Notes: generated by a model from the sequence alone, not told the origin. Numbered from the stretch's first letter, positions 4,889 to 23,629 are shown. The stretch is 24,000 bases of DNA from an uncultured Coxiellaceae bacterium (GCA_963976875.1 CAXBML010000003.1:165726-189725); one strand, 5' to 3'. Numbers and translations: made by a program.

Positions 4889-6046
4889 ATGCCTTCGAAC
4901 CCATCAACCATAGTGCAAGCAAGAAAGTATAAAGACGCATCAATAAAAAGTTACACAGATTACTTTGTTTCGTTTTGTGTTATGACTGAGGGTGCCAACC
5001 CAATGGGGCACAGTTGTATGCTCATTTCTCAGCTGGATCATCGGCAAGGTAAAACAGCCAGAGTAGAAGTGATCAGTGCGTTAGGTTTATACAGTCGGTA
5101 TATGCCAATTTTAGGCTTTAAACCTTATGGCGTGGCAAAAATTAAGCTTGAAGATATGGCTTACATTGCTAACGCAAAAGGGTTGGTTCATGCAACGTAT
5201 CAAATAAGCAAAAAAGATGTCGAGGTGCTACTGGATACTTTTTATCAAGATAAACTCAAAATTGAACAACACGAGGATTCAACTGATTTTAAATCGCCAT
5301 CAGTACCGATGTTTAATGTTTTTAAAAAAAAGAATTGTAAAAAATATGTTTTAGAGTGCTTGAATCGTATCGGCATTAATACAAGGCATTTAAGTAGTTT
5401 TATGGAGATTCCAATTCTAAACTCTTTAGAATCTATGGTTATTTTAGAAGAAGGTAATGGCAGTGAAAAGGCTTATTATTGGGGATCGCCTATATCTTTT
5501 AAGGCAAAGAATGACAATGAAACTTGTCGATTAAATCATGATCTACAAGGAAAGTATGCCAGCCTGTATTATATATGCTCTAGAATAAAAAAATTGCAGG
5601 CTATTATTCAATTACGCCAAGTCGAATTAGCCAGCTTAGGGAAAACAGTTTCCGAAATAAATAAAATTGAAGCTGATCTACTAGCGCTCATGGGTGAGAT
5701 TGAAAATCTTGCGGAATATCCTAAACTCATAACAAAGGAAAAGATCTTTACATTAAGTAGAAAGTTAACATACTGCATTGATGGTCATATTAAGAACTTA
5801 AGTATTAAACAGTTAGAGCCAAACCTGATTTGTGTTTTAACCGATGTTTTGCAAGAATTACTGTTATATATGAAACAATTGTTTTGCCCGGCAGATAAGC
5901 GCAGTCAAGCAAAGCTTAATACCATGGATAGAGAAGTATTTGATAAAATTCAAACGACAGATGCTCAAATGAGGGAGCAAGATAAGGAAAGGAACTATGC
6001 ACCTGACTTGCTACCAAACGACTCATATAGGCGCGCGACAGTCTAA
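4889..6046 (+). CDS. Hypothetical protein; N-terminal domain possibly a permuted-papain-fold (PPPDE/DeSI-like) cysteine peptidase, C-terminal half helical or coiled-coil
   Basis: The ORF is open from the GTG at 4868. ATG 4889 has AGGA 6 nt upstream and ATG 4883 is an alternative start. The His context is FCVMTEGANPMGHSCMLIS. About 109 aa later, the Cys context FKKKNCKKYVLECLNRIGI resembles the NCNhF...L.g..IP motif of PPPDE peptidases. The 3' end overlaps the next gene by 50 nt. Confidence 0.55.
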   Translation: MPSNPSTIVQARKYKDASIKSYTDYFVSFCVMTEGANPMGHSCMLISQLDHRQGKTARVEVISALGLYSRYMPILGFKPYGVAKIKLEDMAYIANAKGLVHATYQISKKDVEVLLDTFYQDKLKIEQHEDSTDFKSPSVPMFNVFKKKNCKKYVLECLNRIGINTRHLSSFMEIPILNSLESMVILEEGNGSEKAYYWGSPISFKAKNDNETCRLNHDLQGKYASLYYICSRIKKLQAIIQLRQVELASLGKTVSEINKIEADLLALMGEIENLAEYPKLITKEKIFTLSRKLTYCIDGHIKNLSIKQLEPNLICVLTDVLQELLLYMKQLFCPADKRSQAKLNTMDREVFDKIQTTDAQMREQDKERNYAPDLLPNDSYRRATV

Positions 6047-6743
6047 CCAAGATAGTTTTGGCTTTGATGCTCGAGATAATTGGGGCTGTTTTGTTGTGGC
6101 TGATGGATTAGGGGGGCACTATCGTGGAGAAATAGCCTCTCAGTTTGTCACCCAATCCCTCATTAAACTTGCCCCAAAGTTTGCGAGCGCCATAGAAACA
6201 GACCCCATGCTGGGCATGAAAGATTTTGTATCACAGGCTATTAGCAAAGCACAAAAAGATATTATTAAAAAATATCAAGAAGTGGATACTCAAACAACCA
6301 TTGCTATTGCTTGGCTAAACCAAGATCACTTCATTGCAGCACATGTTGGCGACTCTAGAATATATAAATTAAACAAACAAGCGGTCATTTGGCGCACGCC
6401 AGACCACACCCAAGTACAAGCTCTATTTGAACAGGGAAAAATTACTGAGGCAGTATTCTCTACCCACCCTTTGCAGAACCAACTACTCAGATCGATTTGC
6501 ACATATGAGCCCCCGGAAGTTGATATTGTCGTACAACCCCCACTTGCTAGCAATGAATCGCTAGTACTATGCACCGATGGTTTTTGGTCTGGTTGTGAGC
6601 CGGAAGATTTCATAAAACTTTCTAGAAATCATGGTTCTACAGAGAAAAAAGTGTCAGATTTAATCGATAGAATTCTTAAGCAGCAGGGCGAAGACTGTGA
6701 TAATATTACGGTTCAAGTTGTGAAAAGCCTGCCCACCCTTTAA
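5997..6743 (+). CDS. PP2C-family (PPM) Ser/Thr protein phosphatase
   Basis: AAGGAAAGGAA (5984-5994) lies just upstream of the ATG. Motifs seen are GARQSNQDSFGF, FVVADGLGGH, AAHVGDSRIY, LCTDGFW and DNITVQVV, all typical of bacterial PP2C/Stp phosphatases. Confidence 0.9.
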   Translation: MHLTCYQTTHIGARQSNQDSFGFDARDNWGCFVVADGLGGHYRGEIASQFVTQSLIKLAPKFASAIETDPMLGMKDFVSQAISKAQKDIIKKYQEVDTQTTIAIAWLNQDHFIAAHVGDSRIYKLNKQAVIWRTPDHTQVQALFEQGKITEAVFSTHPLQNQLLRSICTYEPPEVDIVVQPPLASNESLVLCTDGFWSGCEPEDFIKLSRNHGSTEKKVSDLIDRILKQQGEDCDNITVQVVKSLPTL

Positions 6744-11040: not shown

Positions 11041-11289
11041 TTAGAAACAACCCCATTCGTCACAGATAACCACATCATAGTAACCATAATCATAGTAACC
11101 ATAATCATAGTAACCATAATAACCACCACCATAGTATGGATATGGATCATAAACAACGGGGGCATAGTAATAAGGTGATGATAACGCGCCTAGCAAAGCG
11201 GCTGTTGTTACGATCGCCGTGGTTGCCGCAAGAACTTCAACTGAGCCACCTGAAACGGCTTTTGCTTCTAGCATGGATAATGATTTCAT
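11041..11289 (-). CDS. Double-glycine-leader peptide precursor with Tyr/Gly-rich core (candidate bacteriocin/RiPP-like peptide)
   Basis: AGGA lies 6 nt upstream of the ATG. The leader MKSLSMLEAKAVSGG fits LSxxELxxIxGG (L-12, S-11, E-8, V-4, GG). The core has a hydrophobic A/T/L segment, then 17 Tyr in a 34-aa stretch (PYYYAPVVYDPYPYYGGGYYGYYDYGYYDYGYYD), and ends ICDEWGCF. Confidence 0.6.
   Translation of the reverse strand: MKSLSMLEAKAVSGGSVEVLAATTAIVTTAALLGALSSPYYYAPVVYDPYPYYGGGYYGYYDYGYYDYGYYDVVICDEWGCF
11076..11120. repeat. Three perfect tandem copies of a 15-bp unit inside the peptide gene
   Basis: CATAGTAACCATAAT occurs at 11076-11090, 11091-11105 and 11106-11120. On the coding (minus) strand this reads GAT TAT GGT TAC TAT, giving DYGYY x3. 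Confidence 0.9.
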
Positions 11290-11440
11290 TATAAATCCTA
11301 ATTTTTTTGGTTACTTCAAGAATGAGTACAATAACAAAAAGTCGAATGAGCTCAAATACAAATGCCGTCTAAACCGACAGACGGGAGGTGCTAATGGACA
11401 AAGGGGACTCATAAAGAGATAGTCGGCTTTGTAACTTGAT

Positions 11441-11958
11441 GCTCTGTTGCCCATTTATCTTGGCTGTCCCGAATTATCTTGGCTGTCCCGAATTATCTTG
11501 GCTGCCCCGAATTATTTTGGCTGTCCCGATTATTTTGGCTATCCGGAATTATCTTGGCTGTCCCAATTATCTTTGGCTGTCCCAATTATCTTTGGCTGTC
11601 CCAATTATCTTTGGCTGTCCCAATTATCTTGGCTGTCCCAATTATCTTGGCTGTCCCGAATTATCTTGGCTGTCCCGAATTATCTTGGCTGTCCCGAATT
11701 ACCTTGGCTGTCCCGATTATCTTGGCTGTCCCGATTATCTTGGCTGTCCCGAATTATCTTGGCTGCCCCATTTATCTTGGCTGTCCCGAATTATCTTGGC
11801 TGTCCCGAATTATCTTGGGTGTCCCGAATTATCTTGGCTGTCCCGATCATCTTGGCTGTCCTAATTATCTGGTTGTTCCAATTATCTTCTAACTTAATTA
11901 TATTTTTTCAATTATCTTTGAGAGTCCTGGATTATCTTAGCTGTTCCCATTATTTTTA
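11441..11958. repeat. Tandem array of ~23 direct 18-19 bp repeats (consensus TTGGCTGTCCCGAATTATC) with degenerate copies at both edges
   Basis: Units were delimited by hand from 11460 to 11886, for example 11460-11478, 11479-11497 and 11498-11516. Three unit variants occur: ..CCCGAATTATC (19 bp), ..CCCGATTATC (18 bp) and ..CCCAATTATC(T) (18-19 bp). The variants sit in local blocks. Degenerate copies lie at 11441-11459 and 11887-11958. There are no spacers. Confidence 0.95.
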
Positions 11959-12200
11959 TGCCAATTTAAAAAACCAACAAGAAAAACATACTGTGTTTTA
12001 TTACTCATAAAGAAAAATATAAATTATAAAACGAGATAAATATGGCTAATTGTGTCTAAATAATGATTTGAGAGAGACCCAAACTAATTTATTTCTATTT
12101 TTTACGACTATTTTGCAACAAATTATTGATTTTATTTCGTTCCAATGCGTTAATAACTGTGGTATTGTTTTTTTTGGTATGAACCCGGAGGAAAATTTTC

Positions 12201-12740
12201 ATGGCACCAAAGAAGAAAAAGGCAACGAAAGCTCGAAAGGCTACTGCAACGAAGAAGAAAACCACTGCAAAACGCAAAGCACCTGCTCGCAAGAAAGTGG
12301 CTAAAACTAAAGCAAAAACCAAGAAAAAAGTAACACGCAAGAAAACTGCGACCAAAGTTGCTTCAAGAGCTAAAAAAACAACAGCGACTAAGAAAGCGGT
12401 TGCTAATGTTGTTAAGTTGCCAACTTCAGTTGTTTCTCAGAAACAAACTAAAGCACAAATTTTCACTGAAATCTCAGAAAATACAGGCGTATCTAAAGCC
12501 GATGTTAAAAATGTATTTGCAGCATTGAGAAACTTAGTAGAGCGTCACTTGAAAACTCGTGGTTCAGGACAGTTCATTGTTCCTGAATTGGGTCTAAAAG
12601 TTCGTCGCGTTGCCAAAAAAGCAACTAAAGCTAGAAAAGGCAGAAACCCTTTCACTGGCGAAGAAATCATGATCTCAGCGAAGCCAGCTCGCAAAGCTGT
12701 TAGAGCGACTGTACTCAAGAACCTAAAAGAAGTTGTATAG
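12201..12740 (+). CDS. HU/IHF-fold DNA-binding protein with histone-H1-like Lys/Ala/Thr-rich N-terminal extension
   Basis: GGAGG lies 9 nt upstream of the ATG. The first ~70 aa are K/A/T-rich (MAPKKKKATKARKATATKKKTTAKRKAPARKK...). The C-terminal ~95 aa carry HU signatures, namely KAQIFTEISENTGVSKADVKNVFAAL and the arm GRNPFTGEEIMISAKPARKAV. Confidence 0.85.
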   Translation: MAPKKKKATKARKATATKKKTTAKRKAPARKKVAKTKAKTKKKVTRKKTATKVASRAKKTTATKKAVANVVKLPTSVVSQKQTKAQIFTEISENTGVSKADVKNVFAALRNLVERHLKTRGSGQFIVPELGLKVRRVAKKATKARKGRNPFTGEEIMISAKPARKAVRATVLKNLKEVV

Positions 12741-13895: not shown

Positions 13896-15080
13896 CTAAC
13901 AATCACACATTATAATATTATTCATCATTGCTAGTTCATCGTGTATTGGTAACAAGTGCTGCGGCTCCATGAATTCTGAGCTTGGTGCTTCTACAGTTGT
14001 CAGGATAGGACTAGAGCTAGAGGTCGTTATATTATTGGGGGTGAAGTTTTTTTCAATTAAGGTCTCTGGAAACAACTCTGCAAGTAAATTGATTAAATCA
14101 TATGGGGCATCCTGTCCCTGAGCTTGAATTTGTGTCTGATTAAACTCTGTAATAAAACTGGTATCTATATTATGCTCGTTCGCAAAATCAACGAGCTGTT
14201 TAAATTCTGTAATTTCAGCTTGAGAAGATTCATCTTTGCCTTCTATTAGTGGTGCAACAACAGAAGCCTTGAAATAATAAGTACCTTCTTTGTATTCGCA
14301 ATGCTCCCATAGGAGCTGGTTTGGCAGTACTAATAATTCACATTCAGATTCAAAGTGAGATAAGCCAGAAATATCCTTACCATAGGCGCCATCAAAAGTA
14401 ATAAGGCTTCCATTGCTAAAAGCGTCGCCTATATATGAGTCGAAAGATGTACTAATAAATGCCAGGTTTTCGGATACAGGGAAGTCGCTGTTGATTAAAG
14501 CCATGCGATGTTCTATTTCTTCAAACGAGGTTGAGCTTTCGCCCCTAAAGGTTTGGCCAGAATAGTCTACTTCGGGCATAATTTTATTTAAGCCCGAACT
14601 TAAAAATGCAGTATTAAGTAAAAGTTTATTCGCTGAATTGTTTATACCATTATCATTATAAAAGTCAGGATGTATACGTCCAGTTTTGCCATAAAGGAAA
14701 CTATTAATGCTAGCGTATTCTGAACCGGTATAGTTTTGTATGGCCGTTCTTTCAGCCTCGTTTATGGCAGAATATTTTGGGTCGGTATTTGAGTTGTATC
14801 TATAGCCGTAATACCCAAAATCATTATGAGCATATTTAGCGGTAAATTTTTCAGCGTCATGCGCATCCAGCGTTATATGGTTTAAATTTGCTTTTTGCGT
14901 TAACTCTGAGATATTTATTTTAATATTTCCAACAGTGGCATATAGGTTTTCTTTGCCCTGTATGTTGTTTTCCAACGTATAATTTATTTTATTTTCTGCA
15001 TGCAAGGCACACTTTATAAATAATTCGTATTTTTGAGTATGAATACTTTTATTAAGAGGACCATTCATTAAACCGTGCAT
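13896..15080 (-). CDS. R-S-E class mono-ADP-ribosyltransferase-like protein (C3/VIP2-type toxin domain), probable effector
   Basis: ERTAIQNYTGSEYASINSFLYG matches the a...YT...Y..IN..LR region. SGQTFRGES supplies the Arg, LAFISTSFD is the STS motif, and SHFESECELLVLP is the ExE motif. These occur in the canonical order and spacing. The C-terminal ~110 aa are unrelated and the protein ends NIIMCDC. Confidence 0.75.
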   Translation of the reverse strand: MHGLMNGPLNKSIHTQKYELFIKCALHAENKINYTLENNIQGKENLYATVGNIKINISELTQKANLNHITLDAHDAEKFTAKYAHNDFGYYGYRYNSNTDPKYSAINEAERTAIQNYTGSEYASINSFLYGKTGRIHPDFYNDNGINNSANKLLLNTAFLSSGLNKIMPEVDYSGQTFRGESSTSFEEIEHRMALINSDFPVSENLAFISTSFDSYIGDAFSNGSLITFDGAYGKDISGLSHFESECELLVLPNQLLWEHCEYKEGTYYFKASVVAPLIEGKDESSQAEITEFKQLVDFANEHNIDTSFITEFNQTQIQAQGQDAPYDLINLLAELFPETLIEKNFTPNNITTSSSSPILTTVEAPSSEFMEPQHLLPIHDELAMMNNIIMCDC

Positions 15081-20106: not shown

Positions 20107-20225
20107 ATCATAAAAATTAAAGTGATCTACAGCAATTGAGAATCATTTAGAACTGTAGATAATTCTTGCTAAATGCGTAGTAACAACGTTAGAATTTGTC
20201 ATCGTTTTTAATAAAGGGATATCCA

Positions 20226-20648
20226 ATGAAAAAGAATGAACCAATCAAAAACATTATGTCTTCTAAATTAGTGTTTGCGACTATCAACAGTAAAATCTCT
20301 GAAGTAAAGAGTCTGATGCAAGAGAATCATATTCATCATGTTCCTGTCGTCTCTGGTAAAAAATTAATTGGCTTGGTTAGTCGAGTTGATCTTTTAAGAT
20401 CTTCTTTTAGTGATTTATTTGTTAAAGAAGATAAAGCTTCGGCAGATCAGTTGGACAGTGTTGCTTCCATTGAAGACGTGATGACCAGGGATATTAAAAC
20501 CCTTTCAGTTTCAAGTTCTGTACGTGATGCGGCCTTGATATTGTTAGGAAATGATTTTAATTCATTACCTATTATTGACAGCAATGAAGAGTTAGCTGGA
20601 ATTGTTACATCAAAAGATATTACCAGGTATTTGATTGAGCAGCTATAA
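20226..20648 (+). CDS. CBS-domain pair protein
   Basis: ATG 20226 has AAGGGA 6 nt upstream; the track start at 20196 is a TTG. The two CBS repeats are IHHVPVVSGKKLIGLVSRVDLL and FNSLPIIDSNEELAGIVTSKDI. Confidence 0.85.
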   Translation: MKKNEPIKNIMSSKLVFATINSKISEVKSLMQENHIHHVPVVSGKKLIGLVSRVDLLRSSFSDLFVKEDKASADQLDSVASIEDVMTRDIKTLSVSSSVRDAALILLGNDFNSLPIIDSNEELAGIVTSKDITRYLIEQL

Positions 20649-20714: not shown

Positions 20715-21158
20715 TTATTTTTTCTCTTTAAAGCGTTTTAATGGAACAGTTAACACATCACAGTGTGCATGTGACAATACATAACTAGCCGTTGAACCAA
20801 GCAAAACACCTATGCCATGAGCACCATGGCTTCCTAAGATAATTAAGTCTGATTTCAATTCATCAGCCATGGTAATAATAGATTTTTTTGCATGTCCAGT
20901 AGATAAATGCTGGTGTTTTTTCGCAATACCATAAGTATTTGAAAACTGATGTAAATGAGTTAACGCTTCTTCTTCCAGTTGCTTGTTAAGCTCGCCTATG
21001 TAATAAAACCCACCGCCATAAGTGCCAACCGGCTCTATAACATGAACAATGTTAAGTGTGGCTCCATGAATGCGCTCTAAATCTTTTGCAACCTCGCAGA
21101 CATGTTTACTATCCTTACCTAAATCTGTTGCAAACAAAATATTTTTATATAATGACAT
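20715..21158 (-). CDS. Universal stress protein (UspA family), paralogue 1
   Basis: 147 aa. The sequence shows NILFATDL...LNIVHV...DLIILGSHGAHGIGVLLGSTASYVLSHAHCDVLTVP, which contains the USP nucleotide-binding G-x2-G-x9-G(S/T) motif. Confidence 0.9.
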   Translation of the reverse strand: MSLYKNILFATDLGKDSKHVCEVAKDLERIHGATLNIVHVIEPVGTYGGGFYYIGELNKQLEEEALTHLHQFSNTYGIAKKHQHLSTGHAKKSIITMADELKSDLIILGSHGAHGIGVLLGSTASYVLSHAHCDVLTVPLKRFKEKK

Positions 21159-21236: not shown

Positions 21237-21680
21237 TTAGTCTTGATCATCAAACCGTTTTAACGGAACGGTTAAAACATCACAATGTGCATGAGACAAG
21301 ACATATGTAGCAGTTGAGCCCAATAATACGCTGATACCTCGAGCGCCGTGGCTACCGAGAACAATTAAATCGGCTCCCAGTTCATCGGCCATATCAATAA
21401 TGGCGTGTTTGGGGTGGCCTTTGCATAAAAATTGCTGCTTAGGCGGGATTCCACTAGCATTAGAATATTGGCTAAGGTGCTCTAGGGCTTCCTTTTCAAT
21501 TTGCTCATTCATATCTTCGATATAGTAATAATTACCGCCATAAGCACCAATAGGCTCTATGACATGAACAATATTAAGTGTTGCACCATGTACCCGCTTT
21601 AACTCTTTAGCAATATCACATACATGCTGGCTGTCTTGACCTAAATCCGTTGCAAATAGAATATTTTTATATAATGACAT
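21237..21680 (-). CDS. Universal stress protein (UspA family), paralogue 2
   Basis: 147 aa and collinear with paralogue 1, with roughly two-thirds identical residues by eye. The N-terminus MSLYKNILFATDLG and the C-terminal block YVLSHAHCDVLTVPLKRF are identical in both. Confidence 0.9.
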   Translation of the reverse strand: MSLYKNILFATDLGQDSQHVCDIAKELKRVHGATLNIVHVIEPIGAYGGNYYYIEDMNEQIEKEALEHLSQYSNASGIPPKQQFLCKGHPKHAIIDMADELGADLIVLGSHGARGISVLLGSTATYVLSHAHCDVLTVPLKRFDDQD

Positions 21681-23154: not shown

Positions 23155-23191
23155 GCTTATAAATTTTAACTGTTCAAACATGGAATATAAA

Positions 23192-23629
23192 ATGTCTACG
23201 AAAGCGATTGTTAAAGATATAATGTCAACAGAGCTAATTACTATCGAGCGTTATGCTAATTTCTCTGAACTACGGAACCTATTAGAAAAAAATGATATCC
23301 ATCATATTCCTGTCGTTGATGGTGAGCAGTTGCTTGGTATTTTGAGCACCACGGATGTGTTGAAATATAGTTTTGGTGCTATGGGTGTTGGGCAAGATAA
23401 AAAGCTTGATAAATCTTTAGATCAAAATATTTCTTTAGATGCGATTATGCAAACGCAAGTTGTCACTGTTACCCCAGATACGCCTATTATGGCGGCCGCA
23501 GAATTGTTGCTATATAGCAATTTTAACGCCTTGCCTGTAGTGGACGCTTCTCAAAAACTAGTTGGTATATTAACGACAAAAGATTTTATTGGTTATATGC
23601 TTAAGTTTGAAGGGAAGCTAAAAGATTAG
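23192..23629 (+). CDS. CBS-domain pair protein (paralogue of 20226..20648)
   Basis: ATG 23192 has GGAA 6 nt upstream and gives MSTKAIVKDIMS, which parallels MKKNEPIKNIMS of the paralogue. ATG 23180 is the longer alternative. The CBS repeats are IHHIPVVDGEQLLGILSTTDVL and FNALPVVDASQKLVGILTTKDF. Confidence 0.85.
   Translation: MSTKAIVKDIMSTELITIERYANFSELRNLLEKNDIHHIPVVDGEQLLGILSTTDVLKYSFGAMGVGQDKKLDKSLDQNISLDAIMQTQVVTVTPDTPIMAAAELLLYSNFNALPVVDASQKLVGILTTKDFIGYMLKFEGKLKD

Follow-up and report, generated by a model that had tools for sequence, protein, structure and literature searches.

The spacer between two divergent genes of an uncultured relative of Candidatus Berkiella (Coxiellaceae) holds an array in which a 19-bp unit is repeated about 23 times head to tail, and we consider it likely that this array is a lineage-specific, probably functionless intergenic minisatellite that slippage or unequal exchange would have made. 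The structure is tandem, the unit variants are clustered and the edges are decayed; the array is absent from the related lineages, and there is no machinery associated with it. Passages in two reports place Berkiella in the Coxiellaceae and describe its members as intranuclear symbionts of amoebae (PMC9803151, PMC4759071). The window, meaning the whole 24-kb stretch of DNA that was analysed, has a G+C content of about 38%, encodes housekeeping enzymes as well as eukaryote-like or effector-like proteins, and contains no tRNA genes and no Rfam families. The features needed below are the following, with positions counted from the first nucleotide of the window.

11041-11289, minus strand: gene for an 82-aa peptide with a double-glycine leader and a Gly/Tyr-rich body (translation; conserved with the same neighbours in four lineages)
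11302-11384, minus strand: conserved block by the peptide start, with the motif or hairpin CCGTCTGTCGGTTTAGACGG at 11365-11384 (70% identity to lineage L003)
11439-11864, plus strand: 141-aa ORF called by gene callers on the array (a gene in L001, at 5239-5664, and in L007 and L008)
11442-11460, no strand: decayed unit at the left edge of the array, CTCTGTTGCCCATTTATCT (differs from the consensus at about 10 positions when the units are aligned)
11461-11869, no strand: core of the array, 22 good head-to-tail units with the consensus TGGCTGTCCCGAATTATCT (TRF, unit table and variant counts)
11870-11956, no strand: about five decayed units at the right edge, ever more degenerate (4-11 differences per unit against the consensus)
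11955-12010, plus strand: short segment TTATRCCAWTTT ... CTGTRTTTTTAT common to lineages L003 and L009 (alignment, 300 bp upstream of HU)
12097-12200, plus strand: promoter and 5' UTR block of the HU-like gene, with TTGATT, 18 bp, TTAATA and a GGAGG ribosome-binding site (conservation)
12201-12740, plus strand: gene for a 179-aa HU-domain protein (PF00216, E=1e-13) whose N-terminal tail is rich in lysine

TRF finds one array at this place (11455-11888, period 19, 23.4 copies, 91% matches, 4% indels, score 659) and no second array like it in the rest of the 24 kb. Units were delimited by cutting the sequence at every TGGCTGTCCC core, and in the 22-unit core their length is 17, 18 or 19 bp (18.6 on average). 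The initial annotation had described about 23 spacer-less direct repeats of 18-19 bp with decayed copies on both flanks, and this description holds for the copy number, for the good units (17-19 bp) and for the two decayed edges (11442-11460 and 11870-11956). The consensus 19-mer, when up to three mismatches are allowed, has 11 matches in the window, all of them inside the array, where shuffled sequences lead one to expect none. There are three main variants of length and sequence, and these are arranged in runs. The commonest unit is TGGCTGTCCCGAATTATCT, found seven times among the core units, followed by the ..CCCAATTATCT(T) form (five core units) and the exact ..CCCGATTATCT form (two, plus two derivatives with one substitution each). 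The three variants as they were first written down (..CCCGAATTATC, ..CCCGATTATC and ..CCCAATTATC(T)) are all correct, and so are the runs that had been named, namely three identical 19-mers at 11555-11611 and identical pairs at 11612/11630, 11648/11667 and 11705/11723. Identical units are adjacent in seven cases against 2.26 expected (P=0.0007, 100,000 shuffles of the unit order), a clustering that supports the earlier suggestion that the array expanded locally, through slippage or unequal exchange.

Among the core units, the 5' ten bases (the TGGCTGTCCC half) carry about 6 substitutions in 220 positions, the 3' half has a similar substitution rate, and the other variation consists of one-base indels within the CCC-GAA-TT run. 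No protected sub-motif or recognition core stands out in these units. When the units are read by eye, each has a single GATAAT hexamer and a single CTGTCCC heptamer, whose spacing and number presumably fit neither the Fur box nor the Pho box consensus. The array has no self-complementarity, and its fold as single-stranded DNA has an energy of -1.9 kcal/mol, poorer than that of shuffled sequences (z=+2.24), which bears out the early statement that it is not palindromic. As in other minisatellites the units lie head to tail without spacers and are longer than the usual minimum of about 9 bp, and the like neighbours and decayed edges form the signature of local duplication and homogenisation. The homogenised interior, the runs of variants, the decayed edges and the irregular unit length together are the anatomy of an array made by slippage or unequal exchange. 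The array has been in place for a while, as its decayed edge units show, and this agrees with its being either tolerated or maintained.

Since assembling tandem repeats is difficult, and the source is a metagenome contig of low coverage (about 5.8x according to the record name), a short-read assembler might have inflated or invented the repeat. We regard this as extremely improbable. The window corresponds to the ENA contig ERZ3421489 NODE_49 (217,883 bp), which is identical across the whole intergenic region. The exact 141-aa ORF that spans the array is present on three long contigs of differing lengths, all in the length blocks between 50 kb and 1 Mb, and therefore the same array is found in every long assembly that holds the locus. 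The exact peptide protein is likewise on three contigs, and the exact HU protein is on those and also on a short contig from an independent Logan assembly (L002, 1,077 bp, run ERR2762129). This short contig ends inside the array, of which it carries 5.5 units with an identical right junction. Moreover, the unit variants are interspersed, and owing to this most long k-mers in the array are unique. The array is thus real and not an accident of the assembly of one contig. No difference in copy number is seen among the three long contigs, which do not necessarily represent independent populations.

The genes on both sides are as they had been described, with the peptide with a GG leader on the minus strand and the lysine-rich HU protein on the plus strand. 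Judged by its sequence and conservation, the 82-aa peptide gene is real and conserved. The peptide has a pair of Cys residues at the C-terminus, and its gene adjoins that of the HU-like protein throughout the Berkiella lineages. It contains a tandem repeat of its own, a perfect in-frame repeat of 15 bp x 3.1 at 11074-11120 that encodes YGYYD repeats, and the differences in peptide length among relatives fall exactly at this 15-bp repeat. In the protein encoded at 12201-12740, the lysine-rich tail takes up about 80 residues, and the HU domain comes after it. The protein has 2121 homologues, the closest named one being from Candidatus Berkiella cookevillensis (65% identity), and other close ones from other Berkiella MAGs. 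HU proteins with a lysine-rich tail similar to histone H1 are widespread in Berkiella, in other Gammaproteobacteria, and in MAGs of Planctomycetes and Acidobacteria. The length of this tail is highly variable; the homologue P0005, for example, has 261 aa and is 100% identical in the aligned region, which covers 62% of the query. The divergent pair of peptide and HU genes is kept as far as B. cookevillensis, and because it sits there on a contig of 2.9 Mb, the context of the locus is chromosomal.

Seven related lineages were compared at this locus (L003/L004/L013, L005, L006, L009, L010, L150-152 and L153), where L006 is B. cookevillensis and L003/L004/L013 are uncultured Berkiella sp. The identity of their HU protein to that of the window is 91% over 73% of the query for L003/L004/L013, 99% over 62% of the query for L009, 83% for L150-152 and 85% for L153. 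All seven have the peptide gene, the intergenic region and the HU gene, and in all seven the spacer between peptide and HU gene is free of tandem repeats, be it this array or another. The intergenic region is 911 bp long in the window and 368-707 bp in the seven relatives, so the two promoter regions are more distant here. Only two parts of it can be aligned to the relatives, 11302-11384 and 12097-12200. The second of these, which holds the HU promoter, is 88-90% identical to L003, L009 and L150 and 66-74% identical to B. cookevillensis and others. The first is the left limit of the variable spacer, and its CCGTCTGTCGGTTTAGACGG motif is also present in L003, L005 and L009. Read on the plus strand as CTAAACCGACAGRCGG, this motif (11365-11384) is a terminator-like hairpin of 7 bp, located 75-95 nt upstream of the start codon of the peptide; it may serve as an operator, as a leader element, or to terminate a transcript that comes from upstream. 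The right limit is the short segment at 11955-12010, which starts directly after the last decayed unit. This segment lies about 190-245 bp upstream of the HU start codon and might act on the HU-like gene as a distal regulatory site.

The centres of the relatives' spacers align neither with the window nor with one another. As the alignable parts are confined to the flanks, the centre of the spacer is different in every lineage, and nothing convincing as a progenitor of the unit was found in the spacers of the relatives. The array fills about 520 of the 570 bp of the variable central spacer in the window. Taken from 11385 to 12096 and compared with L003 (5445-5765), L009, L005, L150, L153 and L006, the central spacer shows an unusually fast turnover for a region between conserved genes, with flanks that are 88-90% identical. 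Conserved flanks around an array that is missing from seven related lineages are again what is found with minisatellites. A wider comparison with TRF, covering about 150 loci of HU homologues (about 800 kb, from GTDB genomes and JGI metagenomes), gave no comparable non-coding array upstream of any of them; the other large arrays in these loci are only the coding lysine/alanine-rich repeats of the HU tails.

The unit itself was also searched for elsewhere. In the rest of the window and in the approximately 150 loci, blastn-short with one to three units gave only chance matches of 9-14 bases. The pattern TTATCTTGGCTGTCCCN{2,3}TTATCT, with 22 specified bases or about 1.3 units, had no exact match in 185,579 GTDB species genomes, in JGI metagenomes or in IMG/VR, and the whole array had no blastn match in 72,556 plasmid records and 50,697 phage records. 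It is worth noting that these collections evidently do not contain this organism, because the array itself would otherwise have matched. With regard to a repeat dispersed through the genome, no copies were thus found outside the array in the 24 kb and in public collections, the latter being without this organism.

The array is present in one lineage, while the genes, the promoter-proximal blocks and the HU protein are conserved in its absence, and it is therefore read as a lineage-specific minisatellite. Since it is unique to this bacterium, and since the spacer differs in every relative, an ordinary slippage minisatellite is the most likely explanation. We infer slippage or unequal exchange as the mechanism, and a lack of function. 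In this scenario, a 19-bp segment would have been duplicated in the central spacer between the two conserved divergent genes, and replication slippage together with unequal exchange between sister copies would have amplified and partly homogenised it up to about 23 copies. The central spacer is a fast-evolving and apparently unconstrained sequence. The effect of the array, if there is any, would be passive, in that the promoter regions would be moved further apart, and the copy number could vary. Two points do not sit easily with a minisatellite without function: about 23 copies of 19 bp is large for a bacterial intergenic minisatellite, and the array immediately adjoins regulatory regions that belong to the gene of a DNA-binding protein.

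Similar repeats are known from other host-associated bacteria. The obligate intracellular Wolbachia and Ehrlichia ruminantium have intergenic VNTRs, with slipped-strand mispairing as their accepted source, and tandem repeats are abundant in E. ruminantium (PMC3287509). In Coxiella burnetii, which belongs to the same family as the organism studied here (Coxiellaceae), minisatellites occur with unit lengths from 9 to 126 bp, among them 16 bp x 4 and 18 bp x 6 (PMC1488860). Our array resembles VNTR-105 and VNTR-141 of Wolbachia, the repeats of E. ruminantium and the MLVA minisatellites of C. burnetii in being non-coding, head-to-tail and intergenic. It also shares with them the restriction to a lineage and the high identity of the units, features that are attributed in their case to slipped-strand mispairing and concerted evolution (PMC3287509, PMC1488860). 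There are differences as well. At Coxiella loci whose units are about as long, the copy number is 4-8 (PMC1488860), far lower than the approximately 23 copies of 19 bp found here. At 105 and 141 bp, the units of Wolbachia are longer, and they contain hairpins; the unit here, by contrast, has no structure-forming potential. Finally, a VNTR is defined by polymorphism in copy number, whereas here three long contigs carry an identical array.

This last difference also bears on the proposal that the array is a hypervariable VNTR that alters promoter spacing, that is, a contingency locus where the gain or loss of units changes the spacing or topology between the divergent promoters and in this way tunes or switches the peptide gene, the HU-like gene or both. 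The position between divergent genes would suit such a role, as the ends of the array abut conserved blocks on both sides (11384 and 11955), and the structure does show local gain of units. Nevertheless, the two conserved promoter-proximal blocks do not include the array. A distance of at least 140 bp separates it from the HU promoter block downstream, it does not come between -35 and -10 elements, and the relatives manage without it. Phase-variable loci have their repeat tract in a reading frame or in a core promoter, and neither seems to be the case here, where the array is also outside both genes. Known repeats of phase-variable promoters have much shorter units, which we count against this reading. 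No sigma-70-like promoter matches were found inside the array, and the whole 2-kb region has fewer of them than shuffled sequences. The position of the array and its identity on all three long contigs weaken the proposal, and a contingency locus appears improbable to us.

Another possibility is that the array is a platform with many sites, where each unit binds a sequence-specific protein encoded elsewhere, or the neighbouring lysine-rich HU protein. Such a protein would polymerise on the array and regulate or insulate the divergent genes, or the array would be an element similar to iterons or centromeres. A unit size of 17-22 bp and the form of the array do resemble iterons and tandem-repeat centromeres (PMC5016525). 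In addition, the gene downstream encodes a DNA-binding protein, and the TGGCTGTCCC half of the unit is nearly invariant over the 22 units. On the other hand, this core is no more invariant than the 3' half when indels are set aside, and the variable unit length of 17-19 bp means that the sites are out of register. A Rep initiator, a partition NTPase, a ribbon-helix-helix protein and a ParB-type protein are all missing from the window, as are DnaA boxes near the array, and the context is chromosomal, given the 2.9-Mb contig of B. cookevillensis. That the adjacent HU-like protein makes use of the array, as had been proposed, receives no support from the relatives either: seven lineages keep the gene pair without the array, with HU-like proteins that are 83-99% identical in the aligned region and promoters that are 88-90% identical, and none of the roughly 150 loci of HU homologues has a comparable array upstream. 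Neither the window nor the related loci and public collections yielded a further copy of the unit. For these reasons we see a binding platform, with its sequence-specific protein, as unlikely, and the same applies to the polymerising protein and its regulatory or iteron-like or centromere-like roles.

Plasmid iterons, such as the 19-bp iterons of P1 and F, are non-palindromic direct repeats of 17-22 bp in an array. They are usually present in about 3-9 copies, spaced by about two helical turns, beside a rep gene whose product binds them, and they are found on a plasmid near DnaA boxes and an AT-rich unwinding element. The array described here is similar in that it consists of non-palindromic direct repeats with a unit size in the range of iterons. 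It differs from iterons in having 23 abutting, irregular units of 17, 18 or 19 bp (mean 18.6) where a regular spacing of about two turns would be expected, and in having no Rep-family domain in the window, no DnaA boxes beside it, no plasmid context and no similarity to any plasmid record. Only two DnaA boxes with one mismatch exist in the 24 kb, which is fewer than expected by chance; both are more than 8 kb away from the array, and there are none in the intergenic region. An iteron array or origin was ruled out because the window has no Rep gene and the surroundings of the array no DnaA boxes.

Centromeres of types Ib, II and III are tandem repeats upstream of an operon that encodes their own binding protein (PMC5016525). 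With parC of pSK41 and R1, tubC and the type Ib parS/parH our array has in common that it is a continuous series of short repeats upstream of a gene for a DNA-binding protein (PMC5016525). Those centromeres, however, adjoin an operon for an NTPase (ParA, ParM or TubZ) and a dedicated centromere-binding repressor, which are absent here, and the array is missing from the orthologous loci. No ORF of the window has a Rep, ParA, ParM, TubZ, ParB, ParR, ribbon-helix-helix or Cas domain. Membership among the partition centromeres was ruled out because the window has no par genes, and the comparison with iterons and partition centromeres that had been drawn at first is not supported, given the lack of Rep, Par and Tub genes in the window and of DnaA boxes near the array, together with the irregular spacing of 17-19 bp. 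With CRISPR arrays, the array shares the regular short repeats in non-coding DNA; it has no unique spacers, no palindromic repeat and no nearby cas genes. CRISPR was ruled out for lack of spacers and cas genes, as had already been stated, with units that abut directly and no Cas domains in the window.

A further alternative is that the array gives rise to a product. This might be an RNA from the minus strand, similar to a CsrA/RsmA sponge, or a repeat protein of 141-187 aa as predicted by gene callers; in the sponge version there would be one GGGAC (GGA) motif per unit in a transcript that ends at the hairpin 11384-11365. The plus strand is indeed open in all three frames across the array, and the 141-aa gene has been called in public assemblies. 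In the same way, every unit has a GGA triplet on the minus strand, with the terminator-like hairpin just downstream in that direction. Yet the unit has no stop triplet on the plus strand, and for this reason the 141-aa ORF is probably a spurious gene call. Pfam gives no match for it, a ribosome-binding site is not visible, and the relatives lack this ORF. The reading frame shifts at every switch between 18 and 19 bp, so the "protein" has no regular repeat, just as had been concluded early on from the switching unit length. A coding repeat was ruled out by these frameshifts between units, the lack of a Pfam match and the absence from relatives.

As to an RNA, the array has no Rfam match at the gathering threshold, and even at E=1 there is none except for one chance hit to a lncRNA. 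Folding of the minus-strand RNA is not better than that of shuffled sequences (z=+0.52), which means that the GGA motifs do not lie in hairpin loops as they do in CsrB/Rsm sponges, to which there is no family match either. No promoter-like site is found upstream on either strand, and the hairpin 11384-11365 is conserved in relatives that have no array. Because of the poor folding and this retention of the hairpin, a sponge RNA is without support. A structured RNA, a sponge RNA and hairpin-driven slippage were ruled out, with no Rfam match and folding no better than shuffles on both strands. Overall, we think that there is very little chance of a transcribed or translated product, be it the repeat protein or the sponge RNA with its terminator.

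Apart from the array, the window contains genes for a eukaryote-like Ser/Thr kinase, for a PP2C phosphatase and for an ADP-ribosyltransferase (PF03496), at 187-1377, 5997-6743 and 13896-15080. These three are candidate host-directed effectors, as expected for an intracellular bacterium of the Legionellales type. The ADP-ribosyltransferase is absent from the corresponding position in L003 and L005. There are also two adjacent paralogous genes for universal stress proteins (20715-21158 and 21237-21680), with two genes for CBS-pair proteins (20196-20648 and 23180-23629) in the same 3.5 kb.

An array of this kind is already known as the bacterial intergenic minisatellite, and its copy number is its sole unusual feature. 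It does call for caution in annotation, as a spurious 141-aa gene has been called on repeat DNA in public assemblies. One could also imagine a newly evolved landing pad for nucleoprotein, where the 23 units are cooperatively coated by a specific protein, or by the neighbouring lysine-rich HU if it prefers this DNA; this is an improbable idea. It is equally improbable that a filament formed in this way insulates the peptide and HU genes or regulates them jointly, or that it is an organising or centromere-like site of the chromosome. If true, a regulatory DNA element would here have been caught soon after its birth by tandem amplification. More generally, if either protein binding or the tuning of expression by copy number were true, the array would be a regulatory element with multiple sites that arose by tandem amplification in a single lineage. 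As a minisatellite, it illustrates the free turnover of the central spacer between two conserved genes, and it would be a good marker for strain typing and population studies in this uncultured Berkiella-like lineage, while otherwise it matters little.
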